In this document: in pieces, positions 26,301 through 45,416 of the stretch | Numbering within the stretch: the stretch's first letter is position 1 | Layout: every line of letters begins with the position of its first letter | Assembly (NCBI GenBank): GCA_027021705.1 | Contig: JALUTT010000056.1 | Location: 1 to 64,000, forward strand | Source: Anaerolineae bacterium | GTDB lineage: Bacteria > Chloroflexota > Anaerolineae > S140-20 | Direction: 5' to 3' | DNA: 64,000 bases | The notes under the pieces: generated by a model | Databases searched by the model: none | Seen by the model: only the letters and a program-made list of their open reading frames with translations | Told to the model about the DNA's origin: nothing | Translations under genes and position numbers: made by a program

Positions 26301-28369
26301 CCACCGACGCCCTGCAGGTGGTCACCTCTTCTCTGACCAAGACGGCCTCCCTGGCCCAGGCCCCCCTGGGCAGCACCTTCGTCTACACCCTCACCGTCCC
26401 CGCCCCGGCCATCAACGCCACCTTCTACCAGGCGGTGATCACCGACGTGGTGCCGGACGCCTTCCAGATCACGGCGGTGGACGCTCCGGGCGGCAACATC
26501 GCTCAGACGGGCAACACCCTGGTCATCACCTACGCAGCGCTGTCCGGCACCCCGCCGACCGCCATCCACATCACCGTCACCGTCTGGCCCACGGCCACCT
26601 ACGGAACCTACCTCAACGGCGTGACGATGACCTGGCAGACGGAGCCGGCGGGCGGGCTTCGGCACCAGACCACTTTCTCGGGAGCGCCGGTGACCATCAT
26701 CGCGCCCAACGTGGCCCTGAGCAAGGGGGGGGACGCGGCAGCCCTGCCCGACCAGCCCGTGCGCTACACCATCGTCTACACCAACACCGGCCTGGCAACG
26801 GCCAACGGAGTGCGTATCACCGACACGCTGCCCCCCGGCGTGACCCTGCTGGGCTGGAGCGCCAGCCCCAGCCTGACCCTCCTCTCCAGCGATCCCTTGG
26901 TCTGGGATGTGGGCAACCTGGCAATGGGGGCCAGCGGGACCATCTGGATCACGGGGCGTGTCCCCCTGACCCAGCCGCTGGGCTCCCAGATCACCAACAC
27001 GGCGGTCATCGCCACCGGTAGCGCCGGCGACAATCCGGTGGATAACCAGGGCACGGCGACCACCTCCATCGGTGCGGCCGTCCTGACCCTGGTGAAGAAG
27101 GACACCCCCGATCCCGTCTACAGCGGTGGGCGACTGACCTATACGCTCCGCGTGACCAACGAGGGGAACCTGACGGCGGTGGGGTTGATCGTCACGGACC
27201 GGGTACCCCTGAGCACAACGCTGCTCACGGCCGGCGGTGCGGCGACCCAGACCGGAGGTATCAGCGCGGGCAGCCTGATCACCTGGGATGTGGGGGACCT
27301 GCTGGTGGGCGATAGCTCGACCCTGTTCATGGTCGTGCAGGTGGGCAACGGGATCGTGACGGGCACGGTGCTGGTCAACGACCGGTACGGCGTCCAGGCC
27401 GGCCAGACGGTCACCCGCCCTGCCCCTCCTCCGGTGACGACGACCGTCTACGGTCGCCCGGTGCTCCTCCTGACCAAGGAGGCAGCCCCGAGTCCGGTGG
27501 AGCCGGAGCAGACACTCCGCTACACGCTGCGCTACACGAACGCGGGTACGGAGGACGCCCTTCAGGTGCGCATCACCGACGTCTTCCCCGCCGACCTCTT
27601 CCTGCAGGGTTGGAGCGCCGGTCCTGCCCTGACCCAGGTCTCTACGAACCCGCTGGCCTGGGACGTGGGCGAGCTGCCCGTCGGGGCCGGCGGCACCATC
27701 TGGATCACCGGGTACGTGCCTTCCACAATCGGGGTCCCTTCCCTGATCAACCAGGCCGCCATCGTCGGCCAGGGGCTTGATCCCGTCAGCGTCACCCTTG
27801 AGACGCTTATCGGTGGGCCAAAGTACGCTTATCTGCCGCTCATCGTGAAGGGATTCGAGGCCCTGCCCAACCTGATCGTCGCCTCCATTGCCGTCTCACC
27901 AACCACGCCGGTGGCCGGCCAGGCGACGGTGATCAGCGTGACCATCCGCAACGTGGGGAACGTGAGCACGCGCGATCCCTTCTGGGTGGACCTCTACGTA
28001 GACCCCAGCCACGCTCCCCAGCCCGGTGAATTGTGGAACGACGTGAGCAGCTACGGCAAGGCCTGGCTGGTCTATGACGCGCTGGCTCCAGGGGAGAGCT
28101 TGGTGCTCACCACGCTGGACCCCGACGATCCGCAGAACCCGGACGCCCGGTACAGCAACTGGCCCGGCTGGTTCGTCACGCCGGGGGACCATCTGCTCTA
28201 CGCCCGGGTGGACAGCTACGAGGGGCCGGAGGGCTGGATCCCGGAGTTGGATGAGGGGGACAACGGGTACGGGCCGGTGACCGTCACCGTCACGGGCACG
28301 GCGGTTATGGCCACGGAAGCGCCCGCACCGCTTCCGCGCCGAAGGCCGGGGGGAACCGCCGCGCCATAG
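23366..28369 (+). CDS. large exported DUF11/isopeptide-domain repeat surface protein with C-terminal CARDB-like domain
   Basis: Signal peptide; about 10 repeats of K...YT...ITDxLP...W...N; YAYLPLIVK, then PNLIV...IRNVGN...FWVDLY. Confidence 0.85.
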   Translation: MHRSSRPIRFYGSLIVALVVQMLLPLGSVGIGAGVEAFSPDLVPYGGQRVSPLPAWFAPPPRPSQQGSTPTLSKSASVATAIHGDTFQYTFVFTVPPGFALTTLEDILPSYPPLAFIANTHTGPTPLTPGTPDVGTITPTLSSGNRWATWVLSPTIVNNSSQDYVYQITIYAWVSGQGWGTAANNASLSWTTGGPATASTSVQVQHPDIERQVIGVSPYETASNPSPPDRYLDGLRAGDVVTFYQIVTNTTTNYGSDVSPAYDLSLQFQLPDWLAFGGMVSSHAAPITSTGGSGLNRYTLLEWRATSLSGGNESALNQLDPGGSLTIVFTATVKDNVAAGRDNNAQLDLSYYDRSGGTSHSLTGLQLTLRSAAPTLQKLETDLAPVGATRVNDYITYTLVITTPGPGVTLYSPDPPTTTIWVRDTLPDGLHYVTGLYTPAGWTGPVTSPSGGSTLIEWRWADGDITQTVVYTFQFLAQDAGLYANGTPIPRAQSLSNRFDLYWYTHDAQQLSSLASVAVNHVRPDIQPTKNASPPSLSGGGEQVVWTISNLSNRTPYGETAYNIVISDSLPPGFTLVGASPPGYTTATLGGRTVITWGPYISLTAGSSLTDHVITSTAPAILPAGQGYLNEVSVFYTNTLPYTNTASRSVAAPAPVLQKSVSPAGDVRVGEHLYYTLTVEIAPGAVAYWPRYQDTLPSGIHYVTGTLAITNTSLISPLLVEASGGRQQLTWYVNTLSNPASSPLWVTATFQARVTATDTNGVGLYVTTSDLQGGPNVGNRFNLAWFYTDTAGTSNYDDNLNSSYTFNYLIQPYLVDPSFPVTKVLVAPPTTTLVSGSTLITYALTVYNTGRASAYDVVLSDTLPWGLEFVTYTATMVNPYGGQVYTPTFSAEPSVGVTGTLVWQVDEVPGNDGNNAARPTHLTLTYTVRARTDVGAGALLTNSARLMDYTSMPGNVPFERHYAALSGYPALTGTGRLHTTDALQVVTSSLTKTASLAQAPLGSTFVYTLTVPAPAINATFYQAVITDVVPDAFQITAVDAPGGNIAQTGNTLVITYAALSGTPPTAIHITVTVWPTATYGTYLNGVTMTWQTEPAGGLRHQTTFSGAPVTIIAPNVALSKGGDAAALPDQPVRYTIVYTNTGLATANGVRITDTLPPGVTLLGWSASPSLTLLSSDPLVWDVGNLAMGASGTIWITGRVPLTQPLGSQITNTAVIATGSAGDNPVDNQGTATTSIGAAVLTLVKKDTPDPVYSGGRLTYTLRVTNEGNLTAVGLIVTDRVPLSTTLLTAGGAATQTGGISAGSLITWDVGDLLVGDSSTLFMVVQVGNGIVTGTVLVNDRYGVQAGQTVTRPAPPPVTTTVYGRPVLLLTKEAAPSPVEPEQTLRYTLRYTNAGTEDALQVRITDVFPADLFLQGWSAGPALTQVSTNPLAWDVGELPVGAGGTIWITGYVPSTIGVPSLINQAAIVGQGLDPVSVTLETLIGGPKYAYLPLIVKGFEALPNLIVASIAVSPTTPVAGQATVISVTIRNVGNVSTRDPFWVDLYVDPSHAPQPGELWNDVSSYGKAWLVYDALAPGESLVLTTLDPDDPQNPDARYSNWPGWFVTPGDHLLYARVDSYEGPEGWIPELDEGDNGYGPVTVTVTGTAVMATEAPAPLPRRRPGGTAAP

Positions 28370-30640: not shown

Positions 30641-31654
30641 ATGAGCACCCTGTACCGTCGTAGAACCCGGAGAAAGAAGGCCGGAATCATCGGGAGATCG
30701 TTGGGACTGTTCCTCCTGTTCCTGCTCCTAGGAGGGCTCCTGCTCAGCCCCCCGGTGGGAGCGGCTGGGGTCCCGCAGGGCACACCGCCCCCTCGCCCTA
30801 CGCTGACACCGACGCCCACGGCCACGTTGACGCCAACCCCCACCATCCCCGTCTCCATCACGCCCACCTCCACCCCGTCCCCTCTGGAGGCCCAGGCCTC
30901 CTTCCCCAGCCTCCAGGGACGGGTGATCAACCTGGCCGACGGCACCGGAGTGGCCGGCGTCCCCGTCAAGCTGGTAGGGGTGGACAACTGGTCGGTGGAG
31001 GCAACTACAGACGCGGAGGGTAACTACGCCTTCGGTCGGCTGGGATATGACGTGGGACTGCTCAACATCGTCCTGGAAGAGGGGAACGGCCTGGAGCCGG
31101 TGACTCAGGACATCGCCATCGTGCCGCGTCCCGAACTCGGCCTCGTCGTCAATCTGGGCGTCCGGGGGGACAACGCCGGTCCCCTCCCCCTGGTCCCCAG
31201 CCTGGAGGTGAGCCGCCGGACCGTGAACCAGGGCGACGTCGTCACCTTCACCGTCCGGGTGCAGAATGATCTAGAAACCAAGGTCTCCGGGGTCATGGTC
31301 ACCGACCTGCTGCCCCAGGGCCTTGCCCTCTCCGGCGTGCGGACCAGTCGGGGCGATCCCTTCACCCAGGGCAACTACGCCGCCGCCTACGTCGGTGACC
31401 TGGGACCCGGCGAGGAGGTGGTGGTGGAGATCGTCGCCGACGTGACCGATGGAGCCTTCTCGCCAGTGGTCAACCGGGTGTCGCTCATCTATCGGGAGCA
31501 CGCTGCAGCCCAGGCGACCGTCCAACTGAACGTGCACGGGGCCCAGCCGGCGATGCTGCCGGTGACCGGCTTTGGCCTGCCCCTGGCGGGCATTGTCCTG
31601 GCGGCGGCGCTCCTTCTCTTCGGGTGGCTACGTCGCCGGGCAGCGGCGGTCTGA
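30641..31654 (+). CDS. Pro/Thr-rich DUF11 protein with LPxTG sortase signal
   Basis: Signal peptide, PT linker, DUF11 domain, LPVTG-TM-RRR tail. Confidence 0.85.
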   Translation: MSTLYRRRTRRKKAGIIGRSLGLFLLFLLLGGLLLSPPVGAAGVPQGTPPPRPTLTPTPTATLTPTPTIPVSITPTSTPSPLEAQASFPSLQGRVINLADGTGVAGVPVKLVGVDNWSVEATTDAEGNYAFGRLGYDVGLLNIVLEEGNGLEPVTQDIAIVPRPELGLVVNLGVRGDNAGPLPLVPSLEVSRRTVNQGDVVTFTVRVQNDLETKVSGVMVTDLLPQGLALSGVRTSRGDPFTQGNYAAAYVGDLGPGEEVVVEIVADVTDGAFSPVVNRVSLIYREHAAAQATVQLNVHGAQPAMLPVTGFGLPLAGIVLAAALLLFGWLRRRAAAV

Positions 31655-31847
31655 CCCTTTCTTGAGGATTGCCCAAGCACCTGAATCACCGAGACACCGA
31701 AAGGGATGAGGCTACTGAGATTTCCCCTGCCTCGGTGCCTCAAGCCGTAGGGAGCCCTCCCGCAGGCCCAGCCCGGCCCGAGCTTCCTCCCAGGAGGGTG
31801 GTCGGGCCGGGGGGACATGGCCCCCGGCGGGGGGCCTGCGGGAGGAC

Positions 31848-32975
31848 CTAGTTTCGGCCCCAGCGCGTCCGCAGGCAGTAGTCCACCACGCGGGGGTAGT
31901 AATCGGCGATGGAGGGCAGCCTGATTCCCGACCCCTCCAGGGCACGCCGGGCGTGGGTCGTGTCGAAGGCTTTGGGCAACGCCATGTGGGGGATGAAGTG
32001 GCTCAGCGCCGCCAGGGCCTGGGCCTCCCGGACCCGACCTGCCCGTTCCGCCTCCCGCCTCAGCGCCTCGAAGCGCTCCAGGTCCACGATGGCCGGCCGC
32101 CGCACCTCCCGGCTCCCCCGCCGGTAGGGGGAGGTGTGCAGGCAGCGCACCGTCACATCCACCAGCTCGCCCAGCGTCAGGGAGCCCTCAGTGCCGGCGC
32201 AGAGATGATAGGTCATCCCCGGCCCGAAGCGCCGGTGCACCAGGTAGTGCAGGGCATCGGCCAGCCAATCCACGGGAATCAGGTCCACAGGACCATCGGG
32301 GTCCCCCGGCAGGGCCGGCACCAGGTTGCTGGCAAGGAGGCGCAAGGTTTGGTGCAGGAAGTTGAACTGGCGCACCTCGCCCGTCCGGGAGTCCCCGATG
32401 AGGCTGCTGGAGCGGTAGACGGCGATGGGCAAGTCCCCCATCAGCCCCCGCAAGTAGACCTCCGCCTCGTACTTGGTCTGCTCGTAGGTGTTGACGAAGC
32501 CGGCCTGGTGAACCAGCTCCTCTTCCAGGATGCGGCCCACCCGCCGGCCGGCGACGTGGGCTGTGCTGACGTGGGCGACGGCCTCCACCCGCCGCCAGCG
32601 GCGCACCTGGTCCATCAGGTTCACCACCCCCAGCAGGTTGACCTGTCGGGACTCGGCCAGGGGCCGACCGAAGTGGATGTCGGTGGCGCAGTGGACCACG
32701 TGGGTAACCCGCCGGCAGAGCTCCGCGCGGACCTCCGGCGACAGTCCCAGGTCGGGAGCCGTCACGTCGCCGCGCACCGGCGTGATCCGGTCAAGGCGCT
32801 CCGCCGGGGAGAGCCCCAGCGAGGCCAGGAGGTTTCGGAACCGGCCTGCCAGGTCCGCGTCGGAAGGGGCGCGGATCAGGGCGTAGACGTGGGCGTCACC
32901 GGCCCTCAGGTAGCGGCGCAACAGCTCGCTGCCCACCAGGCCGGTGGCTCCCGTGAGGAAGACGACGGGTTGCAT
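31848..32975 (-). CDS. extended SDR, NAD_binding_4 (thioester reductase / fatty acyl-CoA reductase-like)
   Basis: FLTGATGLVG, HVSTA, YEQTK, DLIPVD; ATG 32975 preceded by GAGG. Confidence 0.88.
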   Translation of the reverse strand: MQPVVFLTGATGLVGSELLRRYLRAGDAHVYALIRAPSDADLAGRFRNLLASLGLSPAERLDRITPVRGDVTAPDLGLSPEVRAELCRRVTHVVHCATDIHFGRPLAESRQVNLLGVVNLMDQVRRWRRVEAVAHVSTAHVAGRRVGRILEEELVHQAGFVNTYEQTKYEAEVYLRGLMGDLPIAVYRSSSLIGDSRTGEVRQFNFLHQTLRLLASNLVPALPGDPDGPVDLIPVDWLADALHYLVHRRFGPGMTYHLCAGTEGSLTLGELVDVTVRCLHTSPYRRGSREVRRPAIVDLERFEALRREAERAGRVREAQALAALSHFIPHMALPKAFDTTHARRALEGSGIRLPSIADYYPRVVDYCLRTRWGRN

Positions 32976-33063
32976 AGGCCACACCTCTCTGGATGCCGGG
33001 CGCTTGCGATCGCGGATCGCTCGAAGGCGCGTCCGGCGGTTCGTCCTACCGCAATCCGCCGGG

Positions 33064-33182
33064 ATTATACCTGCAACAGGGACGAAGGACAACCCGCAGG
33101 GACCCTCCCGCGGGTTCTCCCCACGGCACCGCGTGACCTGTGGGAGGGCGAGTTTGACTTTCCCGCCAAACGGATGCATAAT
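33064..33182. promoter_or_regulatory. divergent sigma70-type promoter pair
   Basis: Minus strand TTGTCC-17-TATAAT (33092-33064); plus strand TTGACT-17-CATAAT (33154-33182). Confidence 0.7.
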
Positions 33183-33206
33183 TTGCCTGCAAGGGATCAC
33201 ACAGCT

Positions 33207-34097
33207 ATGGACCACATAACCCTCTCCCCCACAGACGACTATCGGCACAGCCTGGAACCCGGTCAGCACGAAGCCTTCTACTTCCTCTTCACCGCTCAGG
33301 ACGGAGCGGTGTACGGCTTCCTGAGAACCCTCTTCGACCAGAAGACAGTGTTGGAGATGGCCGTTCTCCATTCCGGCGAGCGGACCTGGGCCTACCAGCG
33401 CCGTATCCCGCTCTCCGATACCCCGCCATCTCCCGGCGATGCTTCCGGTGACGCTCTGACGTTGACCTGTCTGGAGCCCTGGCAGTCGTGGCGCTGCCGC
33501 TTCCAGGGAACGGTGCGGGACGTGGCAGGGGAAGGGACGATGCCCGTCACGGTGGACCTGACCTTCGCCGCCATCAACGACCCGGCCCTCTACTCGTTCG
33601 GCCCCTACCACCAGGTCCAGCAAGACGGCCACGTCAGGGGTCAGCTTCAGATCGGGAGCCAGATATGGACGGGTGAGATGGTCTGCTGCCGCGACCGCAG
33701 TTGGGGGGTACGACCGATGGGCGTGGCCCTGAGGTGGACCCTGGCCTCCGTCCCCGACCGCCTCTACGCCGTGGTCGTGGAGACGCGGCAGGGGCCGGCT
33801 GGCTTTGGGCGCTTCCGCACGCCCGATGGTCCGTTCCGCCCCGTGCATCTCCTTCAGGTCGCCGCCACGGACGGAGGGTGGCGTCTGGAGGACCCGACAG
33901 CCGGACTGGCCGCCTGGCACGTACAGCGTATCGTCCCACCCCTGGTGGGCTACTTGGGCCCGGCAGGCCAGGAGGAGATGCGCACCGAACCTCGACCGGG
34001 TGACCTGCTGCGCGATGAACTGGGACCGGCCCTCTTCACCTCTCCCGAAGGGAAACGTTTGATCGGCTTTCTCGAACAGGCAGAGGGGCTGACATGA
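33207..34097 (+). CDS. hypothetical beta-rich protein (tocopherol cyclase/AttH-like double barrel)
   Basis: EAFYFLF, LTCLEPWQSW, HxxQxG, RDRSWGVR motifs; coupled to next gene by ATGA. Confidence 0.6.
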   Translation: MDHITLSPTDDYRHSLEPGQHEAFYFLFTAQDGAVYGFLRTLFDQKTVLEMAVLHSGERTWAYQRRIPLSDTPPSPGDASGDALTLTCLEPWQSWRCRFQGTVRDVAGEGTMPVTVDLTFAAINDPALYSFGPYHQVQQDGHVRGQLQIGSQIWTGEMVCCRDRSWGVRPMGVALRWTLASVPDRLYAVVVETRQGPAGFGRFRTPDGPFRPVHLLQVAATDGGWRLEDPTAGLAAWHVQRIVPPLVGYLGPAGQEEMRTEPRPGDLLRDELGPALFTSPEGKRLIGFLEQAEGLT

Positions 34098-35746
34098 CCG
34101 AATGGCTGCTGAGCGGCCACAACACTCAGGAATCCTTTGACATCACCCGGCCCGCGATCCTGACGATGGGTGAGGCCACCCTGGACGACCAGATCACCTG
34201 GTTTGTGGAGCAGTTGGCCGGGGATACCTCAGACCTCGATCCCACGTTGAAGCCCTCGGCCTTCGTCCAAGGCCGCTGTTACTTGAACATCGGCTACTTC
34301 GTGCGCAACATGGGGGCCGTCCTTCCCTTCGCCCCCGAGTCGGTGGGGGTGCCGGCCGACCTGATCCCGGCCAACATGACGCCCCCCGACCCCCCGCTCC
34401 GCCGAAAATTGCTGCTGCCTTGGCGGTTCCGCCGCGCCTATCGCTGGGCGAGCCATTTCTACCGCCACCGTTTCCCCAGGCTGGAACGTCGGCTGCGGGA
34501 GACCTATTGGCAACTGCGAGAGGGGTCTGACGATCCCCTCCCCCTCATCTGGTCCCTCTTCGAGCCCGACTTCTACGCGGAGGCTGAGGATAACTCCCGA
34601 GCCCACATCATCGCCGCACTGACCATCGCCGCACTGGATGGGGTGCTGCGCCAACGGGCGCCCCAGCTGCTCGGCCTCTTCGCCGGCCAGGAGACGACCA
34701 CCTCGCTGCTAGGCCAGCGCATCTGGGAACTGCGTCAGACGGCCGAGACCTGCGGGCCGGAGGTGCACCGGCTGCTCCGAGAGGGCGTGACCGACCTGGC
34801 AGCCTACGAGGCCCTGCCTGCAGCGGCCCCTCTGGTCGAGGGCATCCGCGCCTTCCTCCGCCAGTACGGCCACCGAGGCTTCCGCTACGAGGCCGACTGG
34901 GCGACCGAACGGCTGGCGGACCGGCCCGAGCACGTGCTGCTGGCAATAGCGGGACAACTGAGGGAGGCAGAGCCCCCGGAGGTGCGGGCGGAGGCGGCCC
35001 GCCAGGCGGGGATGGAAGCCCTGCGCCGGATGAACCCCCTCCGGCGAGCCCTTTGGCAGCGGCTCCTCCGCTGGGGACAGCAACTCATCGCCTGGCGAGA
35101 GGCTTCCAAGAGCGTCGGCGCCCTCCGCCAGGCGGCCTACGGGCTGGCAGCCCGGCTGTTGGCCCGCCATTTCTACCCCGACCAGCCCGACGACACGATG
35201 ATGTTCTACACCCTGGAGGAGTTCCTGGCCTTCGTGCGCAGCCAGGGGCAGGAGCGGGTGGATCAAGCAACCCTGGACCGCCGCCGCGCCCAGTTCGAAC
35301 TCTATCGGAACCAACCCCCACCCCCGGAACTGATCTGGTACAACCCCCACACCCGCCACTGGCGACCGGCCCTGGAGGTCGAGGAAGAGACGGCGGCCAC
35401 ACCGGCAACGCGGCTGGAGGGAATTGCGGCAAGCGCGGGAAGCGGGCCGGCCGAGGGAATCGCGGTGGTGACCAACGACCCCCTCGACGCCGGCCGAAGG
35501 CTGCTGGAAATGGAAGAGCCGGTGGTGCTGGTCACCCGGCTGACCGACCCCGCCTGGTCGGGACTCTTCCGGCGACTCAGCGCCGTCGTGACCGAACTGG
35601 GCGGGGTCATCTCCCACGCCGCCATCGTGGCCCGGGAGAACGGCCTCCCCGCCGTCGTCGGCGTCCCTGAGGTCACACGGCTGGTGCGAGATGGACAACG
35701 TCTGCGTGTGGACGGCGCGGCTGGCGTCGTCGAAATCCTGGAATGA
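34094..35746 (+). CDS. PEP-utilising enzyme subunit: substrate-binding plus phospho-His swivel domain (paralogue 1)
   Basis: FLRQYGHRG, LEGIAASAG, VLVTRLTDPAW, ELGGVISHAAIVARENGLPAVVG; no ATP-grasp domain. Confidence 0.88.
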   Translation: MTEWLLSGHNTQESFDITRPAILTMGEATLDDQITWFVEQLAGDTSDLDPTLKPSAFVQGRCYLNIGYFVRNMGAVLPFAPESVGVPADLIPANMTPPDPPLRRKLLLPWRFRRAYRWASHFYRHRFPRLERRLRETYWQLREGSDDPLPLIWSLFEPDFYAEAEDNSRAHIIAALTIAALDGVLRQRAPQLLGLFAGQETTTSLLGQRIWELRQTAETCGPEVHRLLREGVTDLAAYEALPAAAPLVEGIRAFLRQYGHRGFRYEADWATERLADRPEHVLLAIAGQLREAEPPEVRAEAARQAGMEALRRMNPLRRALWQRLLRWGQQLIAWREASKSVGALRQAAYGLAARLLARHFYPDQPDDTMMFYTLEEFLAFVRSQGQERVDQATLDRRRAQFELYRNQPPPPELIWYNPHTRHWRPALEVEEETAATPATRLEGIAASAGSGPAEGIAVVTNDPLDAGRRLLEMEEPVVLVTRLTDPAWSGLFRRLSAVVTELGGVISHAAIVARENGLPAVVGVPEVTRLVRDGQRLRVDGAAGVVEILE

Positions 35747-37430
35747 CGTCCCTTCGCCTTCACCCCTGACGACGCCGGAACGGCGTCGGATTCCAGACAG
35801 ACACGGAGGCCCCTATGACCGAGCAGTCACCAAGCGGATACCCCCCGGGATCGCCGGACCACCCGACGACCGAGTGGCTGCTGAGCGGACACAACACCCA
35901 GGAGTCAACCGGCGTCGCCCGGCCGGTGACCGTGACGATGACCGAGGCCGGGCTGAATGCCCAGATCCGCTGGTTCCTGGGCCAGTTGGCCGGCGATACC
36001 TCAGACTTCGACCCAACCCTGCCTCCCTCGGCCGTCGTCCAGGGCCGGCTCTACCTCAACATCAACTACTACACCCGCAACATGGCCCTGGTGCTTCCCT
36101 TCGACCCCGAATCGGTGGGGGTGCCGGCCGACCTGGTGCAGGATACCGCCCAGATTCCCCGAGGGCGGCTGCTGCGCCTACCCGGTCGCTTCCGCCGCAT
36201 CTACCGTTGGGCGGCCGACTTCTACCGCCGTCGGCTGCCGGAGCTGGACCGCCGGCTGCGCGAGACCTACTGGCAGTTGCGCGAGGAGCCCGACGACGCC
36301 CTCCCCCTCATCTGGTCCCTCTTCGAGCCCGACTTCTACGCCTTCTCCCGGGAGACCGACCGGGCTCACATCGTCATCGCGCTGACCATCACGGCGCTGG
36401 ATGGGGTGCTGCGCCAGCGAGCGCCCCAACTGCTCAGCCTCTTCGCCGGCCAGGAGACGGCAACCTCGCTGATGGGGCAGCGCATCTGGGAACTGCGCCA
36501 GACAGCAGAAGCGTGCGGGCCGGAGGTCCATCGGCTGCTGCAGGAGGGGGTGGCCGATCTGGCAGCCTACGAGGCCCTGCCCGTAGCGACCCCTCTGGTC
36601 GAGGGCATCCGCGCCTTCCTCCGCCAGTACGGTCACCGGGGCTTCCGCTATGAAGCCGATTTCGAGACCGAGCGGCTGGCGGACCGGCCCGAGCACGTGC
36701 TGCTGGCGGTGGCGGGGCAGATGCGGGAAGAAGAGCCCCCGGAGGTGCGGGCGGAGGCGGCCCGCCAGGCGGGGATGGACGCCCTGCGCCGGATGAACCC
36801 CCTCCGGCGAGCCCTTTGGCAGCGGCTCCTCCGCTGGGGACAGCAACTCATCGCCTGGCGCGAGGACTCCAAGAGCAACATCGCGTTGCGTCAGGCCACC
36901 TATGGGCTGGCAGCCCGGCTGTTGGCCCGCCATTTCTACCCCGACCAGCCCGACGACACGATGATGTTCTACACCCTGGAGGAGTTCCTGGCCTTCGTGC
37001 GCAGCCAGGGGCAGGAGCGGGTGGATCAAGCAACCCTGGACCGCCGCCGCGCCCAGTTCGAACTCTATCGGAACCAACCCCCACCCCCGGAACTGATCTG
37101 GTACAACCCCCACACCCGCCACTGGCGACCGGCCCTGGAGGTCGAGGAAGAGACGGCGGCCACACCGGCAACGCGGCTGGAGGGAATTGCGGCAAGCGCG
37201 GGAAGCGGGCCGGCCGAGGGAATCGCGGTGGTGACCAACGACCCCCTCGACGCCGGCCGAAGGCTGCTGGAAATGGAAGAGCCGGTGGTGCTGGTCACCC
37301 GGCTGACCGACCCCGCCTGGTCGGGACTCTTCCGGCGACTCAGCGCCGTCGTGACCGAACTGGGCGGGGTCATCTCCCACGCCGCCATCGTGGCCCGGGA
37401 GAACGGCCTCCCCGCCGTCGTCGGCGTCCC
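35141..37430 (+). repeat. 527-bp direct repeat (35141-35667 and 36904-37430)
   Basis: Appears nucleotide-identical by eye at offset 1763; flanks diverge. Confidence 0.85.
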
Positions 37431-37509
37431 CGACGTGACCCGCCGGGTACGCGACGGGCAGCGCCTGCGTGTAGACGGTGCCACCGGCATCGTCGAGATC
37501 CTGGAGTAA
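35815..37509 (+). CDS. PEP-utilising enzyme subunit: substrate-binding plus phospho-His swivel domain (paralogue 2)
   Basis: Same motifs as paralogue 1; C-terminal third essentially identical. Confidence 0.88.
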   Translation: MTEQSPSGYPPGSPDHPTTEWLLSGHNTQESTGVARPVTVTMTEAGLNAQIRWFLGQLAGDTSDFDPTLPPSAVVQGRLYLNINYYTRNMALVLPFDPESVGVPADLVQDTAQIPRGRLLRLPGRFRRIYRWAADFYRRRLPELDRRLRETYWQLREEPDDALPLIWSLFEPDFYAFSRETDRAHIVIALTITALDGVLRQRAPQLLSLFAGQETATSLMGQRIWELRQTAEACGPEVHRLLQEGVADLAAYEALPVATPLVEGIRAFLRQYGHRGFRYEADFETERLADRPEHVLLAVAGQMREEEPPEVRAEAARQAGMDALRRMNPLRRALWQRLLRWGQQLIAWREDSKSNIALRQATYGLAARLLARHFYPDQPDDTMMFYTLEEFLAFVRSQGQERVDQATLDRRRAQFELYRNQPPPPELIWYNPHTRHWRPALEVEEETAATPATRLEGIAASAGSGPAEGIAVVTNDPLDAGRRLLEMEEPVVLVTRLTDPAWSGLFRRLSAVVTELGGVISHAAIVARENGLPAVVGVPDVTRRVRDGQRLRVDGATGIVEILE

Positions 37510-37522
37510 GGGAGATAGACGG

Positions 37523-38476
37523 ATGAGCGAGATCCTCTTCACCCCCTGGGAAGGAGACGAGGAGCGCCCCCTCCCACCCTTGGAAGCGGTAGGTGGCAAA
37601 GGGCACGGTCTCTACTGGTTGGCCATTCACGGCTTTCCTGTGCCCCCCACCTGGGTGCTCAGCACGGCCGCCTTCGACCTGGCCCTCCAGCGAACCGGAC
37701 TGGGGGAGCAGGTTGCGGAGATCGAGCGAACCATCCTCAGCCTTGAGGACGATTGGGCCACATCCCAGGAAGCGTTGAAAACCCTGGAGCCGATACGCCA
37801 GAAAGTGTCCACGGCGCTGCAACGGGTCGCCCTGCCCGATCGGGTGGGCCGGGCGTTGGAAAAACTGGTGTTGATGCCCACCCAGTGGGCGGTCCGTTCC
37901 TCCGCCACGGCGGAGGACAGCCTCCAGCACAGTTTCGCCGGCCAATTCCTCTCGCTGCTCTCCGTGCCCTCAGGGGTAGCCCTTTGGAAGGCCGTGCGCC
38001 AGGTGTGGGCCTCGGCCTTCGGCCAGAAGGCGCTCACCTACTGTGCCCAAAACCGGATCCCACTCCCCAAGATGGCGGTGATCCTCCAGCCTATGTCCCC
38101 CATCACCGCTCGGGACCGATCGGGCGTGATCTTCAGCCACTCGCCGGTGCCCACGCTGCCCGGCGTGTTGATCCAGGTCGCCTTTGGGACAGGTGAAGTG
38201 GTTGTCGGAGGCTACGGCGGCGACCTTTACAGTGTGCAGGGGGACGAGGTCCAAATCCAGCCGATGCCGGCCGCCCACATCCGGGTGACCGATCCCAAGG
38301 GCTACACGACAAGGGCGGCAACCCCTCCCGGGACAGCCCTCACCGAAGCGGAGGCCCGGCACCTGGCCGCCCTGGCCCTGCAGGTCTCCGAGCAATGGGG
38401 AGGGCCGGTGAACATCGAGTTCGTGTGGCAGGCGGGTCAGGACCCCGTCTTGGTCCAGGTCCGTCCTGCCAAGTAG
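37523..38476 (+). CDS. stand-alone PPDK_N / PEP-pyruvate-binding ATP-grasp subunit
   Basis: VGGKG, GFPVP, AVRSSATAED...SFAGQF, MAVILQ, IEF...LVQVRP. Confidence 0.9.
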   Translation: MSEILFTPWEGDEERPLPPLEAVGGKGHGLYWLAIHGFPVPPTWVLSTAAFDLALQRTGLGEQVAEIERTILSLEDDWATSQEALKTLEPIRQKVSTALQRVALPDRVGRALEKLVLMPTQWAVRSSATAEDSLQHSFAGQFLSLLSVPSGVALWKAVRQVWASAFGQKALTYCAQNRIPLPKMAVILQPMSPITARDRSGVIFSHSPVPTLPGVLIQVAFGTGEVVVGGYGGDLYSVQGDEVQIQPMPAAHIRVTDPKGYTTRAATPPGTALTEAEARHLAALALQVSEQWGGPVNIEFVWQAGQDPVLVQVRPAK

Positions 38477-38605
38477 CGTCGCGGGGAGAGCAGTGGTGTC
38501 TACCGTACGATTCAAATGATCAAGCAGGCTACAGGCCGGGAACCGGAGATCTACCTGGAAGGGAATGAACTGGTGGTCTCTCTGCCTCGAAGGGCCAGGG
38601 GGTAA
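38477..38605 (+). pseudogene. possible 3' remnant of a HATPase_c_4-type gene
   Basis: Start-less frame ESSGVYRTIQMIKQATGREPEIYLEGNELVVSLPR resembles the GSG-R...G-EP...V-LP terminus of that domain. Confidence 0.3.
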
Positions 38606-38608
38606 GGG

Positions 38609-40348
38609 ATGAACCGTACACGGCTTGTCTTCTTCGTCATTCTCTTGGTGGCCTTTTTGATCGTAAGCATCGGGCTGCTGATGCGGGGTCTCCGGCAGAT
38701 CGCCGGTCCAGCAGGTGCCGGGGAGGTCGGTACCCCGCTGCCGCGCGACGCCATCGTCGTCTCCATCCAATCATCCAACACCAAGCAGGATTGGATGAAC
38801 CAGGTCGTGGAGTCCTTCAACGCAGCGGGCTATACCGTGGAAGGGCGGCCCATCGTCGTCACCGTGGAGCACGTGGGCTCCGGCAGTTCGATGCAGGCCA
38901 TCCTCGACGGGGAGGTGCAGCCCGTGGTCTGGAGCCCCGGCAGCAACCTCTGGGTGACCCGCATCAACCAGGCCTGGGAGGACCGGACGGGGCGGCGGCT
39001 GATCACCGGAGACTGCCCGGCTACGCTGCGCCTCCCTTTGGGCATCGCGATGTGGCGTCCGATGGCCGAGGCCCTGGGCTGGCCCGACAAGCCCATCGGC
39101 TGGAACGACATCGCCGCCCTGGCCAACGCTCCGGAGGGCTGGGCGGCCTACGGCCATCCCGAGTGGGGCCAGTTCAAGTTCGGCCACGCCCACCCGGAGC
39201 ACTCCAACTCCGGGATGCTCTCCATCGTCGCCGAGGTCTACGCGGCGGTGGGTACCACCGAGGGGCTCACCGCCGAGATGGTGAAGAGCGCCCCGGTGGT
39301 CGAGAGCATGCGGGCCGTTGAGCAACGGGTCTTTCATTACGGCAAGAAGGATACCGACATCCTGCTTCGGATGACCCAGCGGGGCCCCGAGTACCTCCAC
39401 GCCGTCACCAGCTACGAGGCCAACGTCATCAAGTGGAATCGGGACCACGCCGACGAACTGCGCTTTCCCCTGGTGACCATCTACCCCAGCGACGGCACCT
39501 TCTGGGTGGAGAACCCCTACTGCATCCTGGACAACGCCGACTGGGTGAGCGAGGAGCAGAAGGAGGCTGCGGCCATCTTCCGGGACTACCTCCTCTCACC
39601 GGAGCAGCAGGCGCGGGCGGTGGACTGGGGGCTGCGACCGGCAGATCCCAACGTTCCTCTACGCACTCCCATTGACCTGGAGCATGGGGCCATTCCTTCC
39701 ATCACAATGAACGACGTCCCCCACCTGGCCTACCCCTCCGATGCCATCGTAGGACACATCCTCGATGTCTGGCACCAGGTCAAGAAGAAAGCCACCGTCG
39801 TCCTCCTGCTGGACACCTCCGGGAGCATGCGAGGGGAGAAGATCAAGGGGGCGGTCGAAGGGGCGACGCTCTTCTTGGAGCAGATGTACCCCGACGACGA
39901 GGTCTACGTCATCACCTTTGCCACCGACGTGCTCGAACTGCCGACTTCCGGGCGGGTAGGGGTCGTAGGGGAGTCATTGCGCACCTCGCTTCAGGGCCTC
40001 TACGCCGAAGGGTCAACGGCCCTTTACCAGGCGGTCCTCCAGGCCCTGAGGCGCATCGAGGAGCTACGGGCCGAGGATGAAGCGGCGGGGGAGGCCCGTA
40101 TCTACGGCATCGTCTTGCTCTCCGATGGGAAGAACGAGATCGTGGGCGGTCCTTCGTGGAACGACGTCCTCAGCCGCCTCCCGTCGGGGATGGAGGCCAG
40201 CGGCGTCAAGATCTACACCGTCGCCTACGGGGAAGATGCCGACGAGGACGTGCTCCGCACCCTGGCCAACCGGACCAACGGGAAGTTCTTCACCGGTGAT
40301 GTAAAGAACATCGCCGATGTTTACTTCCTGATCTCGTCGGAGTTCTGA
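38609..40348 (+). CDS. membrane-anchored solute-binding domain plus vWA domain protein
   Basis: N-terminal TM, GSG, HPEHSNSG, MIDAS DTSGSM, LLSDG. Confidence 0.88.
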   Translation: MNRTRLVFFVILLVAFLIVSIGLLMRGLRQIAGPAGAGEVGTPLPRDAIVVSIQSSNTKQDWMNQVVESFNAAGYTVEGRPIVVTVEHVGSGSSMQAILDGEVQPVVWSPGSNLWVTRINQAWEDRTGRRLITGDCPATLRLPLGIAMWRPMAEALGWPDKPIGWNDIAALANAPEGWAAYGHPEWGQFKFGHAHPEHSNSGMLSIVAEVYAAVGTTEGLTAEMVKSAPVVESMRAVEQRVFHYGKKDTDILLRMTQRGPEYLHAVTSYEANVIKWNRDHADELRFPLVTIYPSDGTFWVENPYCILDNADWVSEEQKEAAAIFRDYLLSPEQQARAVDWGLRPADPNVPLRTPIDLEHGAIPSITMNDVPHLAYPSDAIVGHILDVWHQVKKKATVVLLLDTSGSMRGEKIKGAVEGATLFLEQMYPDDEVYVITFATDVLELPTSGRVGVVGESLRTSLQGLYAEGSTALYQAVLQALRRIEELRAEDEAAGEARIYGIVLLSDGKNEIVGGPSWNDVLSRLPSGMEASGVKIYTVAYGEDADEDVLRTLANRTNGKFFTGDVKNIADVYFLISSEF

Positions 40349-41556: not shown

Positions 41557-43044
41557 TTGGACGATCGAACCCGAAGACCGCATAGTCGGGTGGAGAGGTT
41601 GAGAGCGAACGCTGTCGGCCTCTCCCTCGCTTTTGGAGCGCCCCTGGGGCTTTTCCTCGCCACGATGGCCCCAGGGCTCACCTGGGCCCACGCCGGGGCC
41701 GACGGTGGGGACCTGATCACCGCCGCCTACACCCTGGGCATCCCCCATCCTCCCGGCTACCCTACCTATACTCTCCTGGCCTGGCTCTTCACCCGGCTGC
41801 CCGTGGGGAGTGTGGCTTGGCGCGTCCACCTGCTCTCCGCCGGAGCCACGGCGGGGGCGGCAGCGTTGCTCTTCGAGACCGTGCAGATGTGGGTCGGGGG
41901 AAGGGCCTGGAAGCGGACGGTGGCCGGCCTGGGCGCGGCCTGGAGCCTCGCCTTTGCCCCTCTGGTCTGGTCCCAAGCGATCATCGCCGAGGTCTACGGC
42001 GTCGCTCTCCTCTGGACGGGGCTGGTCTTGCTTCTGGCCTCCCGCCTAGCCCGGGCACCGGTCCCCGGGACGGCACGCCGCTGGGCCTTCCTCCTGGGGC
42101 TCTCCTGGAGCCTGGGGTTGGGGGTCCACCTGACCCTCGTCTTCCTGATCCCCCTGGTGATCTGGGCCGTCCATCGGTCGGAACGGGTCGCCTGGGCCTC
42201 CCTGGCGGGAGGCGTCCTGCTGGGCCTTGCCGTCTGGCTCTACCTGCCCCTGCGGGCCGGACGGGGAAGCGTCACCTGGGGGGAACCGACGGACTGGGCC
42301 GGCTTCTGGTGGCTGGCCTCAGGAGCCCTCTACCGGGGATACCTCTTCGCCCTGCCCGCCCAGGCCCTGCCCGCCCGCCTCGCCTTCCTGCTCCGGCGGA
42401 TGAGCGGTGACCTGGGGTGGCTGGGGGTGATCTGGGCCGGCTGGGGGGTGGGGTGGTTGAAGTCCCACCGCCCCGGCCTGCTGGGGGCAACGGCCCTCAG
42501 CGCAGGGCTCTTCACCGTTTACGCGGTGGGCTACAACACCGCCGACTCCTACGCCTACCTCCTCCCCGTCTTGGCCATCCTCGCTCTGTGGGCAGGGATC
42601 GGGCTGGGAGAGGTGGTGGCACGGGCCGGACGGCGCTGGGGACCGGTCCTGGCCCTGGGAGTGCCGCTGGTCGTGCTGGGGCTGAACTACTCCGCCCTCG
42701 ACCTGAGCCGGGAGCGGGAGGCGCGGGACTTCGTCGCCGGCGTTGAGGCGGCTGCGCCGCCGGGGGCCATCGTGGTGACGGACGCCGACGGCCAGACCTT
42801 CGCCCTCTGGTACGCCCGATTCGTCGAGGGACGACGCCCCGACCTGATCGTGGTGGACCGAGCACTGTGGGGTTATCCCTGGTATCGGCGCTGGCTGGCC
42901 CGGCGCTGGCCTGATCTGGCGGTCCCTTCCGGCGGAGGGGTAGAGGCACTTCTGACCGCCAATCCGGAGCGCCCCTTCTGCGAGGTCCCCGTGGTATGGG
43001 AGGGGGCTTTGACCTGCGTAACTGTTCACCCTCCCGCAGGTTAG
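41557..43044 (+). CDS. DUF2723 (TMEM260-like) GT-C membrane glycosyltransferase
   Basis: DGGDL...LGIPHPPGYP, WSQAIIAEVY, YLPLRA; start uncertain. Confidence 0.85.
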   Translation: MDDRTRRPHSRVERLRANAVGLSLAFGAPLGLFLATMAPGLTWAHAGADGGDLITAAYTLGIPHPPGYPTYTLLAWLFTRLPVGSVAWRVHLLSAGATAGAAALLFETVQMWVGGRAWKRTVAGLGAAWSLAFAPLVWSQAIIAEVYGVALLWTGLVLLLASRLARAPVPGTARRWAFLLGLSWSLGLGVHLTLVFLIPLVIWAVHRSERVAWASLAGGVLLGLAVWLYLPLRAGRGSVTWGEPTDWAGFWWLASGALYRGYLFALPAQALPARLAFLLRRMSGDLGWLGVIWAGWGVGWLKSHRPGLLGATALSAGLFTVYAVGYNTADSYAYLLPVLAILALWAGIGLGEVVARAGRRWGPVLALGVPLVVLGLNYSALDLSREREARDFVAGVEAAAPPGAIVVTDADGQTFALWYARFVEGRRPDLIVVDRALWGYPWYRRWLARRWPDLAVPSGGGVEALLTANPERPFCEVPVVWEGALTCVTVHPPAG

Positions 43045-43200
43045 GCGCGTTTCCGACGCGAAACCGTGCTTCAAATAGCCCATCGGGGCTGAAAGCGCCC
43101 TCGACCGGTGACCTGCGGGGGGGTAAGCTGATCTGGCCTGCGGGGAGTAGGACGTATCAGCTTTCAAGGCAGGGCTTATCAACGCTTTAACCTGGCGCAG

Positions 43201-43229
43201 TTGACGGAAAGAGGGAGTTGGTTTACAAT
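43201..43229 (+). promoter_or_regulatory. sigma70-type promoter
   Basis: TTGACG-17 bp-TACAAT. Confidence 0.7.
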
Positions 43230-43334
43230 TTGCCTTTAGTCTCCCCTACCACAACGTGTTGGGGGGCTCCGGCGTCTCGGAGGGGCGACGCAGAGCTGAA
43301 TCTGCCGGGCTAACACGTGTTTAGGAGGAAAACG

Positions 43335-43736
43335 ATGGCGCAAGGACGATGGTTTATTGGGCTCCTAGTCCTGGGGCTCCTGGTTGGCGTAGGCAGCCAG
43401 GCGCTTGGCGGACGTGTCGTGTGGGCCGTAGGTCCCCACAGCGCCTTCCGTCAGACGGTCCCGACGCCGACGCCGACACCTGTCCCCCCCACTCCCACGC
43501 CTCTGCCCCCACCTCCGACAGCGACACCGGTCCCCCCGCCTCCCCCTACGGCGACGGTCACGGCCCCGGAGCCGACGCCGACGGCTCTGGTGGGCGGGGT
43601 CTCCGTGCAGGCGGATCCATCCCTGCTACCGGAAGCGGGCAGCCGGCTTCCCCTGAGGGGTTGGATCGGCGGTGGGCTGATGCTGCTGGGTATGGTGGCC
43701 TGGACCCTTGCCCTCTGGCGCAGAGGGCTTCGATGA
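43335..43736 (+). CDS. small Pro/Thr-rich protein with LPEAG sortase-type signal
   Basis: Signal peptide, (PT)n linker, LPEAG-TM-RRGLR; AGGAGG RBS. Confidence 0.8.
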   Translation: MAQGRWFIGLLVLGLLVGVGSQALGGRVVWAVGPHSAFRQTVPTPTPTPVPPTPTPLPPPPTATPVPPPPPTATVTAPEPTPTALVGGVSVQADPSLLPEAGSRLPLRGWIGGGLMLLGMVAWTLALWRRGLR

Positions 43737-43751
43737 AAAGGGAGAAGAGCT

Positions 43752-45416
43752 TTGGATCGCAATCGGCTCCTAAACCTCACCCTCCTCGTTGTGGCCGGCC
43801 TGGCGGCAGTCTCACTGGCAGTGTCCGCCAGCCGTTCCGACTGGGCCACGGCCTCTCAACCTGCGGAACGGCTGACCATTCCTACCCCCACCCCCACCCT
43901 GGTGCCCTCGTCCTACGCCCCCGTCGTCGTCAAGAACTATCCCTCCCTCAGCCAGGCAGCAGCCACCACCTTTCCCAACTGCCGCTACGGTGTCGCCGCC
44001 TGGCAAAACCAGATGCAGAACTTCGACATCGTCTCCAATCTGGGGGTGGGTTGGTACCTGGACTTCACGACCCACGAGACCCCTCCGGGACCGGCCCAAG
44101 CCGAATACGTGCAGATGGTCCGGCTGTCGCAGGATCGGGGGGAGAGCGACACCTGTGGGCCTGACTACGGCTACTCGGTCTCGCCTCCTCTGACGGACGC
44201 CGGCCTGGGTGCGCTGGTGGACGCCAACCCGGGGGCGCTGTGGATCGTCGGCAACGAGCCAGACCGCCGAACGGTGCAGGATGACATCTGTCCGCAGCAG
44301 TACGCCGAAGCCTACCACGACGTCTACCAGTTCATCAAAAGTCGGGACCCAACGGCCCAGGTCGCCGTGGCCGGCCTGGTGGAGGTCTCCCCGGGCCGCC
44401 TGCAGTACCTGGACATCGTCTGGGAGACCTACCTGGAGAAGTACGGCACGCCAATGCCGGTGGACGTGTGGACCGTCCACGTCTACATCCTGTCGGAGTC
44501 GAACGAGGGCGACGCCCACATCGCCCTGGGCACCGATCCCGCCCTGGCCATCCCCCACAGCTCCGATTGTGCCGACCCCAACTCCTACTGCTACGCTGAG
44601 CACGACGACGTGAACCTCTTCGCCGAGCAGATCGTGAGGATGCGGGAGTGGATGAAACGCCGTGGTCAGCAGAACAAGCCCCTGCTGATCACCGAGTACG
44701 GTATCCTGCTCCCCTATAACTACTACGGCACCTGCACCCTCGAAACCTGCCCGCCGGAGGGAGCGCCGGGCTGCTTCTGTGACGAGAACAAGGAAACCTT
44801 CCACCCTCGGCGTGTCGCCGACTACATGACGGCCACCTTCGACTACCTGATGACGGCGACCGACCCAGACCTGGGCTATCCCGCCGATAACTACCGTCTG
44901 GTCCAACAGTGGCTCTGGTTCAGCCTGGCCTACGATCGGGAGGGTCACGCCAGCAACTTGATGGACTCCGACACCTACACCCTTACCCTGCCGGGATGGA
45001 CCTGGCGCAACTACGTGGCGACCATCTCCCCCACGATCAACCTGATCCCGGCTCAGGTGCCGGTGATCGTGGCGCGATCCGCCAACGGCACGGGTCCGGT
45101 AACGGTTACCCTGACCGCTGAGGTGAGGAACAACGGCAACGCCACCTCGGCAGGGACGGTGACCGTCACCTTTTACAGCGACGCAGGATTGACGACACCC
45201 ATCGGCTCGGCGACTTTCACCGACCTGGGAGGGTGTGCGCGACGCGCAGCCGTGGTGACGACCACGTGGGCCAATCTGGAGACGGGCTTGCATCCCTTCT
45301 GGGTGCGGGTGGATAGCACCGACGTGATCAACGAGAATGGGGAGGCAGACAACGTCGCGCAGGGAGCGGTTATGGTCAACCCCTTCGATCTCTTCCTCCC
45401 AGTACTTCTGCGATGA
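43752..45416 (+). CDS. exported clan GH-A-like glycoside hydrolase with CARDB-like domain
   Basis: Signal peptide, WIVGNEPD, LLITEYG, VRNNGN...VDS...E.DN, terminal FDLFLPVLLR. Confidence 0.7.
   Translation: MDRNRLLNLTLLVVAGLAAVSLAVSASRSDWATASQPAERLTIPTPTPTLVPSSYAPVVVKNYPSLSQAAATTFPNCRYGVAAWQNQMQNFDIVSNLGVGWYLDFTTHETPPGPAQAEYVQMVRLSQDRGESDTCGPDYGYSVSPPLTDAGLGALVDANPGALWIVGNEPDRRTVQDDICPQQYAEAYHDVYQFIKSRDPTAQVAVAGLVEVSPGRLQYLDIVWETYLEKYGTPMPVDVWTVHVYILSESNEGDAHIALGTDPALAIPHSSDCADPNSYCYAEHDDVNLFAEQIVRMREWMKRRGQQNKPLLITEYGILLPYNYYGTCTLETCPPEGAPGCFCDENKETFHPRRVADYMTATFDYLMTATDPDLGYPADNYRLVQQWLWFSLAYDREGHASNLMDSDTYTLTLPGWTWRNYVATISPTINLIPAQVPVIVARSANGTGPVTVTLTAEVRNNGNATSAGTVTVTFYSDAGLTTPIGSATFTDLGGCARRAAVVTTTWANLETGLHPFWVRVDSTDVINENGEADNVAQGAVMVNPFDLFLPVLLR

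Follow-up and report, generated by a model that had tools for sequence, protein, structure and literature searches.

A conserved operon pairing a predicted two-component dikinase with a remote homologue of 25-phosphosteroid lyase: a candidate ATP-dependent dehydratase in an Anaerolineae bacterium

Does an enzyme that phosphorylates an alcohol make a phosphorylated product, or does it prepare the hydroxyl group for removal? This question is raised by five genes between positions 31848 and 38476 of the window analysed here, a stretch of 64,000 nucleotides on contig JALUTT010000056.1 of an Anaerolineae bacterium (assembly GCA_027021705.1). The list of open reading frames and Pfam matches placed all five genes where a first-pass annotation had described them. 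There is a reductase gene of the SDR family that is read leftward and, read rightward, genes for a β-barrel protein (barrel), two phospho-histidine subunits (midA and midB), and an ATP-grasp subunit (grasp). The annotation took these genes for a pathway that makes a phosphorylated alcohol or lipid. By contrast, we consider it most likely that the rightward operon removes an unreactive hydroxyl from a hydrophobic molecule rather than making a phosphorylated lipid. Together, barrel, mid, and grasp probably act as an AMP-forming, ATP-dependent dehydratase: an alcohol would be phosphorylated first, and its phosphate would then be eliminated. We infer both reactions, their order and coupling, and the kind of substrate from gene order, domains, folds, motifs, and co-occurrence.

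The barrel gene (33207-34097, forward strand) is predicted to encode a protein of 296 residues with no Pfam match, and its start is backed by 30 homologues. A word-based search found a family of 68 clusters, all about 290-320 residues long and all unnamed or 'hypothetical', and those with a named source come from Anaerolineae or Thermoflexales. An exhaustive profile search of 1.84 billion representatives returned only 24 matches at E <= 1e-30. A search with the single protein found no match in 40 related genomes, and a profile search of 401 genomes of the class was positive in nine, the bacterium's own included. The AlphaFold (AF2) model of the barrel, made from 31 family members, had a predicted local distance difference test score (pLDDT) of 94.6. 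Comparing this model with the PDB using Foldseek, we found that the top five matches were chains of 25-phosphosteroid lyase (25-PSL; 9fzn, 9g2i, 9g4c) with E values of 1.4e-11 to 4.9e-11, followed by AttH, fungal [4+2] cyclases, and kievitone hydratase. Alignment of the barrel with 25-PSL in VIA-align gave a Z of 25.3 and a root-mean-square deviation of 2.7 Å over 255 residues, with 16-17% identity.

It is a sequence motif, rather than this fold, that appears to decide for a relationship with 25-PSL. When the barrel family profile was compared with all PDB sequences, 25-PSL was the sole match (E 0.0075, 36 columns), in an alignment centred on RDHSWGxRP in the family and RDRSWGVRP in 25-PSL. 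The window protein itself has RDRSWGVRP. The family is invariant at R162, D163, S165, W166, G167, and R169, and RD[HR]SWGxR occurs in 43 of the 45 near-full-length members taken from the loci described below. In all of 24 25-PSL-like proteins, R184, D185, R186, S187, W188, G189, and R191 are invariant. Among the 25-PSL entries in the PDB, the complex that contains phosphate and product (9g4c) is set apart by an Asp-to-Asn change inside this motif, suggesting that the Asp may be catalytic. Using hhalign, the barrel aligned with the 24 25-PSL homologues at a probability of 97.2% (E 3.7e-11) over 139 columns. When a profile of 25-PSL homologues was searched against the window's genome, the barrel gene was the only match (E 1e-8). 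The sequence similarity to 25-PSL is partial, covering 36 columns in the profile search and 139 in hhalign but not the full length, and it is weak beside the E values of 2.6e-47 and 2.3e-58 at which true 25-PSL homologues match 9fzn. We therefore place the barrel in a separate subfamily of the 25-PSL superfamily and do not regard it as an orthologue. The earlier label 'tocopherol-cyclase-like' holds at the level of the superfamily: the ESM-Atlas clusters neighbouring the barrel are mainly DUF7065/DUF7064, and some have Tocopherol_cycl in 16-21% of their members. It fails at the level of the family, since PF14249 (tocopherol cyclase) did not match the window barrel at E <= 0.01 or any of the 31 family members at E <= 1. 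The Pfam model for DUF7065 matched five of these 31 members (best E 7e-4) and did not match the window protein.

The three genes that follow the barrel on the same strand are predicted to encode the dikinase. These are midA (34094-35746, 550 residues), its paralogue midB (35815-37509, 564 residues with an 18-residue N-terminal extension), and grasp (37523-38476, 317 residues; PF01326 PPDK_N, E 1.5e-44). PF00391 is the only domain that Pfam detected in the mids; it is C-terminal in both, at residues 474-544 in midA, and contains the motif GGVISHAAIVARE, which is intact in each as first described. Both mids have a catalytic-His motif of the type GG-x-x-[S/C]-H-A-A within about 50 residues of the C-terminus, and H508 of midA, in GGVISHAAIVARE, was invariant in 20 sequences. 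Pfam found no phosphoenolpyruvate (PEP)/pyruvate TIM-barrel domain in any of the five genes. The best PDB sequence match of the mids and of grasp was Listeria rifampin phosphotransferase (RPH), for grasp the RPH-Lm ATP-grasp entries 5hv6, 5hv1, and 5fbs. The AF2 model of midA (pLDDT 90.8) matched Listeria RPH (5fbu) best, and over its whole length (E 1.2e-19, TMq 0.69, about 590 columns). A mid is therefore predicted to be a RIF-binding-like domain joined to a swivel domain.

As judged from the Pfam and PDB matches, mid and grasp appear to form a two-component homologue of RPH like HpeHI, CreHI, and PpsAB, which upholds the original description of a split dikinase with no TIM barrel. In these two-component systems, according to Dexter et al., a His takes the β-phosphate of ATP, the γ-phosphate is hydrolysed, and a swivel delivers the phosphate to the acceptor (PMC12167813). 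With NCBIfam, RIF_Ptrans_rph was the best model for the mids at 130-132 bits against a cut-off of 999, and PRK08296-type models matched the mids in the swivel part only. PRK05865 ('sugar epimerase family protein', 854 positions), which we take to be a model of the Rv2047c-like SDR/PEP-utiliser fusion, gave the two mids 49.6 and 52.7 bits, where the cut-off is 1509. The locus contains no SDR-swivel fusion of the Rv2047c type; its SDR is a separate gene on the opposite strand. With scores far below all of the cut-offs, the mids fit no named equivalog. The genome has other RPH-like genes on contigs C171, C105, and C50, with an ABC-2 permease, an aminotransferase, and proteins of unknown function as neighbours and no barrel. 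A PEP-utiliser gene on contig C67 was rejected as a phosphotransferase system (PTS) enzyme I fusion.

We examined the neighbourhoods of 58 barrel-family loci other than the window's own. Two were from genome contigs (among the matches listed), nine from genomes of the class, and 47 from metagenomes; a 48th metagenome locus, L086, was the window's own contig and was left out. They are not independent samples. Of the 47 loci with 300 or more downstream nucleotides available, 46 have a mid gene after the barrel on the same strand, and of the 35 with 3 kb or more, 33 have a grasp gene further on. Grasp is missing from L017 and from L091, which is truncated and has a twin, L092, that does carry the gene. 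A homologue of the window SDR was present in none of the 44 related loci with enough flank. Thus, the conserved core of the system, which recurs among uncultured Chloroflexota of the Anaerolineae type, is barrel-mid-grasp. Of the synteny that the first-pass annotation had wanted checked, the co-occurrence of barrel and dikinase held and that of the reductase did not. Accessory genes recur within lineages only: an S-adenosylmethionine (SAM) methyltransferase in 12 loci, GT-C in 11, an epimerase-type SDR in seven, FemAB in seven, and 2-oxoacid:ferredoxin oxidoreductase subunits in 8-11. Methyltransferase, GT-C, FemAB, and thioesterase queries from other loci found no homologue in the window.

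The SDR (31848-32975, reverse strand) is a stand-alone NAD_binding_4 protein of the thioester-reductase type, 375 residues long from a start read as ATG (PF07993, E 5.7e-49). It scored 110.3 bits with TIGR01746 (thioester reductase domain), below the cut-off of 213.35. Its nearest relatives, found in two of 40 related genomes at 36-39% identity, are both fusions of NAD_binding_4 with an AMP-binding domain, and this points to the reduction of activated carboxylic acids. Given its absence from all 44 related loci, the SDR is a lineage-specific neighbour that lies outside of the conserved system, and the place in the pathway first given to it is not supported. It shares a spacer with the operon. 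A consensus scan of 31600-38800 (7.2 kb) found exactly two sigma-70-like sites where 0.4 were expected from shuffles, and both are in this spacer and face outward. The site toward the SDR is at 33064-33092 on the reverse strand (TTGTCC-17-TATAAT) and the site toward the operon is at 33154-33182 on the forward strand (TTGACT-17-CATAAT), each with 10 of 12 matches. This agrees with the divergent promoter pair proposed earlier, as consensus matches that are no proof of function. The promoter arrangement, together with a cluster elsewhere (L037, described below) that has a similar SDR, hints at a role in feeding an alcohol to the dikinase. Such a role is conceivable but doubtful, and at most the SDR would supply substrate in this organism.

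If the operon is a dehydratase, its steps can be proposed from its homologues. The ATP-grasp subunit would present ATP, by homology to RPH, PpsAB, and HpeHI. The His of mid (H508 of midA) would take the β-phosphate, with the γ-phosphate released as inorganic phosphate (Pi), and the swivel domain would move the phosphate onto an alcohol held in the RIF-binding-like domain of mid. The net reaction of mid and grasp would be ATP + R-OH + H2O -> AMP + Pi + R-O-phosphate. By homology to 25-PSL, the barrel would then bind the phosphoester via R-D-R-S-W-G-x-R-P and eliminate Pi, so that a C=C bond forms or a carbocation arises and is quenched by some other route. Our own rationale for a dikinase is that its use of two anhydride bonds would render irreversible the phosphorylation of a poor acceptor, a tertiary alcohol for example. 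The two mids would be acceptor-specific modules that work with one shared ATP-grasp subunit. The end product first proposed was the phosphoester; given the barrel's remote homology to 25-PSL and their common motif, we think it more likely that this compound is made only in passing and then eliminated.

The closest precedent comes from Sterolibacterium denitrificans, in which 25-hydroxysteroid kinase (25-HSK) and 25-PSL are described as jointly dehydrating a tertiary alcohol at the expense of ATP (PMC8449060, PMC11061730; PDB 9fzn, 9g2i, 9g4c). The 2021 paper describes 25-HSK as a 40-kDa 'phosphotransferase' that forms ADP, finds the tertiary steroid phosphoester comparable to ATP in phosphoryl-transfer potential (Keq 0.34), and reports that no lyase candidate was found near the 25-HSK gene (PMC8449060). 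Like the operon as we read it, this system has a kinase followed by a phosphate-eliminating lyase, and 25-PSL resembles the barrel in its fold (Z 25.3) and in having the motif RDRSWGxRP. The barrel is shorter, at 296 residues versus 362. In the operon the genes stand together, whereas the 25-HSK gene was described with no lyase candidate nearby. The operon also differs in lacking a steroid-degradation context, with no such genes seen in the window. As for the kinase, HpeHI, CreHI, and PpsAB resemble mid and grasp in having a separate ATP-grasp subunit, a RIF-binding-like and swivel subunit with the His motif near its C-terminus, and no TIM barrel. These enzymes use phenols as substrates and have carboxylases or oxygenases as the next step, whereas the operon has a fixed 25-PSL-like barrel partner and a duplicated acceptor subunit. 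RPH (PDB 5fbs, 5fbt, 5fbu, 5hv1), the best match of both subunits in sequence and structure, phosphorylates a hydroxyl of a large hydrophobic molecule via a phospho-His. It is, however, a single chain with no lyase partner, and the window proteins score far below its family cut-offs. The same phosphorylate-then-eliminate principle underlies the kinase/lyase dehydration of Ser and Thr in lanthipeptides, a reaction on peptides by enzymes of unrelated fold.

Several points weigh against reading the operon as a dehydratase. The two-lobed β-barrel fold is shared by AttH (2ich), which reached the same Z of 25.3 in VIA-align as 25-PSL, and by kievitone hydratase (7a0q) and the pericyclases CghA, Phm7, and Fsa2 at a Z of about 22, so the fold alone cannot give the reaction of the barrel; none of these five has a sequence-profile match to it. 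The homology with 25-PSL is remote, at 16-17% identity by structure, the hhalign match is confined to the N-terminal half, and a catalytic role for the motif Asp in 25-PSL is deduced from the variant in the PDB. The precedent kinase, 25-HSK, is an ADP-forming, APH-like protein of 40 kDa, unlike the predicted AMP-forming two-component dikinase of the operon. L017 has no grasp gene within 10 kb, L128 has a barrel with neither the motif nor a mid gene, and the 58 loci are not independent samples. Squalene/phytoene synthase had no match in five of five operon-bearing genomes, and squalene-hopene cyclase had no full-length match in these five, only partial weak ones; thus, no home-made isoprenoid tertiary alcohol is evident. 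The barrel fold family mostly handles the ends of isoprenoids, as in CrtC and tocopherol cyclase, and the PDB titles tie kievitone hydratase and 25-PSL to isoprenoid ends as well.

We weighed four other explanations against the same evidence. The reductase might make a hydrophobic alcohol that the split dikinase phosphorylates, with the phosphorylated alcohol or lipid as the product, for instance a carrier lipid for the nearby GT-C enzymes, and with the barrel in a binding or accessory role. This would suit the spacer with two divergent promoter-like sites that the SDR and operon share, an adjacency that is retained in a strain about 2% divergent (two other runs), and the homologous NAD_binding_4 SDR (26% identity) that accompanies a 25-PSL homologue and two dikinases in L037. 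In one lineage, 11 loci have a GT-C gene directly past grasp, and L098 and the window have such genes near the operon; L084 has genes for an acyl-AMP ligase, an acyl carrier protein, and an acyltransferase upstream. Yet the SDR is missing from all 44 related loci with enough flank, and the invariant partner of the dikinase is the barrel with its 25-PSL motif rather than the SDR. The GT-C adjacency reflects few independent events, and a search of the window with the L077 GT-C detected no homologue. We consider a phosphorylated lipid product rather unlikely. The barrel might instead use the phosphate that the same kinase adds as a leaving group for cyclisation or rearrangement, in the manner of a terpene synthase or pericyclase, or it might be a hydratase that makes the alcohol first. 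Its fold relatives kievitone hydratase and the [4+2] cyclases CghA, Phm7, and Fsa2 (Z about 22) and the ESM-Atlas neighbour clusters with Tocopherol_cycl lean this way. The family profile matches only 25-PSL among PDB sequences, however, and it is their common motif that is altered in the product complex of 25-PSL; such chemistry seems unlikely.

The two remaining explanations start from the kinase. An RPH-like enzyme could inactivate a xenobiotic or antibiotic, phosphorylating a rifamycin-like or other toxic alcohol in a step that the barrel makes irreversible. RIF_Ptrans_rph is the best NCBIfam model for both mids, RPH gives the best PDB matches, and the genome has further fused RPH-like genes, but the scores of 130-132 bits are far under the 999-bit cut-off, there is no resistance context, and the other RPH-like paralogues have no barrel neighbour. 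This makes inactivation quite improbable. Phenolic catabolism, in which the dikinase would phosphorylate a phenol and the barrel would be unrelated to it, is favoured by the two-component architecture held in common with PpsAB, CreHI, and HpeHI and by the Ser that precedes the catalytic His, as it is reported to do in PpsA and CreH (PMC12167813). Neither the window nor the sampled loci have adjacent carboxylase, P450, or phosphohydrolase genes, however, and the only match to UbiD in the genome is on another contig (C145) with none in the window, which agrees with the first-pass observation that no phenylphosphate carboxylase gene is adjacent. The PRK08296-type models reach only the swivel part of the mids, and the conserved partner is the barrel. 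We give phenolic catabolism hardly any credence.

The mid gene is duplicated in the operon. MidA and midB are 85% identical and differ most in the N-terminal acceptor domain, with the lowest identity in the first 200 residues (66-78% amino-acid identity). A quick tree groups the two as sisters (SH-aLRT 99), indicating that the duplication is lineage-specific. A run of 527 nucleotides at 35141-35667 in midA is identical to 36904-37430 in midB, both on the forward strand, and its flanks are 70-90% identical with many synonymous differences. This pattern would fit gene conversion in the linker and swivel while the acceptor part diverges. Contigs of three public runs from two studies span the midA-midB junction (35638-36328), and a contig collapsed on the identical stretch has a depth of 158 versus about 77, or double. 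Thus, the tandem is not an artefact of assembly. Among the loci there are one to four mid genes and always a single grasp gene, with at least two full mids in 10 of the 58. It is therefore probable that a single ATP-grasp subunit serves several acceptor subunits, as was first proposed, and the N-terminal divergence of midA and midB accords with this. The metagenome contigs L121 and L122 have a barrel-mid-mid-barrel-mid-barrel-mid array in which one barrel is broken into two pieces, and they end ahead of any grasp gene. L092 has a second, divergent mid beside a DUF7065 protein, upstream of its single grasp gene. In these multi-cassette loci, the copy numbers of barrel and mid covary.

We also examined whether kinases accompany more distant barrels. 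There were at least 48 distant barrel loci among the matches listed, again with kin that are not independent, mostly from Alphaproteobacteria and also from Actinomycetota, SAR86, Binatia, and others. An APH-family kinase gene lies within two genes of the barrel in 34 of these 48 (8/12 + 26/36), and a cytochrome P450 is also present in 11. P450, APH-type kinase, and 25-PSL homologue occur together in L020, L028-L030, L035, L036, L041, L047, L048, L059, and L062, from Phenylobacterium and other Proteobacteria. If so used, the three would hydroxylate, phosphorylate, and eliminate, for a net desaturation. L037, from a Desulfobacteraceae metagenome-assembled genome (MAG), has between 2762 and 19581 a close homologue of 25-PSL (E 2.3e-58 to 9fzn) with two fused RPH-like dikinases. 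The cluster also encodes two flavin adenine dinucleotide (FAD) oxidoreductases, an NAD_binding_4 SDR, an aldehyde:ferredoxin oxidoreductase, an SCP2 protein, an ADC-like protein, and two further barrel-like proteins, one of which is DUF7065/DUF7064 with RDKSWGVR. The further barrel-like proteins of L037 and L092 had no PDB sequence match. The L037 genes may encode an anaerobic pathway for an alcohol of steroid-like or isoprenoid type, with a dikinase taking the place of 25-HSK.

Both predicted functions are also found in one chain. P0104, a protein of 1178 residues from a Thermoplasmata MAG, has a complete RPH-like dikinase (PPDK_N and a PEP-utiliser swivel) fused to DUF7065 and DUF7064, with RDHSWGVR in the barrel part, and its cluster has three members from several sources. 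It was found by the exhaustive profile search; a word-based search among longer proteins found no fusion. This fusion is a Rosetta-stone link between the dikinase and barrel functions. In P0210 (410 residues), a piece of DUF7065 is joined to an EcKL/APH-like kinase piece. Pairing of a kinase with a lyase is thus a general habit of the barrel superfamily.

In the operon itself, the barrel stop codon overlaps the midA start codon (ATGA). The ATG of grasp lies 14 nucleotides past the midB stop and is preceded by GGGAGA, and grasp homologues align from residue 1. Upstream of the region are genes for a NERD-UvrD helicase and a DUF11 surface protein and downstream is a gene for a solute-binding/vWA protein; these flanking genes give no functional hint. 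Contigs of runs X1 and X2 are longer by 1090 letters at a point between the stop codon of grasp and the gene after it (38489/38490 in the window), and a related strain may therefore carry one further gene there. In run X1 this insertion is the minor form (depth 15.7 versus about 78). In other lineages, the place after grasp is occupied by the SAM methyltransferase.

The operon is surrounded by a cell-envelope glycosylation region. This includes, all on the forward strand, the 1667-residue DUF11-repeat surface protein and three GT-C-type membrane proteins (TMEM260-like/PMT_2) at 23366-28369, 41557-48001, and 59454-62024, along with a Wzt-type ABC ATPase and several GT1, GT2, and GT4 genes. A radical SAM protein encoded 13 kb upstream of the operon (19055-20068, reverse strand) is 67% identical to one that, in the L077 lineage, is encoded 3 kb downstream from the grasp gene. 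At 21122-22043 on the forward strand, there is a nucleotidyltransferase (Polbeta/NTP_transf_2) with a HepT-like ribonuclease, an MNT/HepT-type toxin-antitoxin module. The GC content falls to 0.52 at 56001-58000, versus 0.62-0.71 in the rest of the window.

We also entertain a wider and more tentative idea, which we consider conceivable but rather improbable. Pairs of barrel and mid might be exchangeable cassettes that plug into one ATP-grasp subunit, forming an AMP-forming 'alcohol activation and carbocation release' machine as a monophosphate counterpart of the diphosphate chemistry of terpene synthases. Unactivated secondary or tertiary alcohols would be the substrates of such a machine, to be dehydrated without oxygen and perhaps also cyclised or rearranged. 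Its range would run from Chloroflexota to Desulfobacterota and archaea, in some cases as one fused polypeptide.

To our knowledge, the ATP-dependent dehydration of a small molecule by phosphorylation and elimination is known from one system, 25-HSK/25-PSL in anaerobic cholesterol degradation, and we know of two-component dikinases only from phenol catabolism. In the literature that we searched, we found no paper on 25-PSL itself or on a dikinase-lyase module, either as an operon or as a single polypeptide, although literature on the 25-PSL structures outside of this coverage may bear on the point. The operon combines the principle of 25-HSK/25-PSL, as we read it, with the kinase type of HpeHI, PpsAB, and RPH. 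An operon and a natural fusion that join both types of enzyme would extend both families to new chemistry. If the operon is indeed an ATP-dependent dehydratase, this would provide a function for 'hypothetical' proteins resembling DUF7064/DUF7065. It would also provide an oxygen-free route from unreactive alcohols to alkenes, relevant to biocatalysis and to the attack on and remodelling of lipids by anaerobes.

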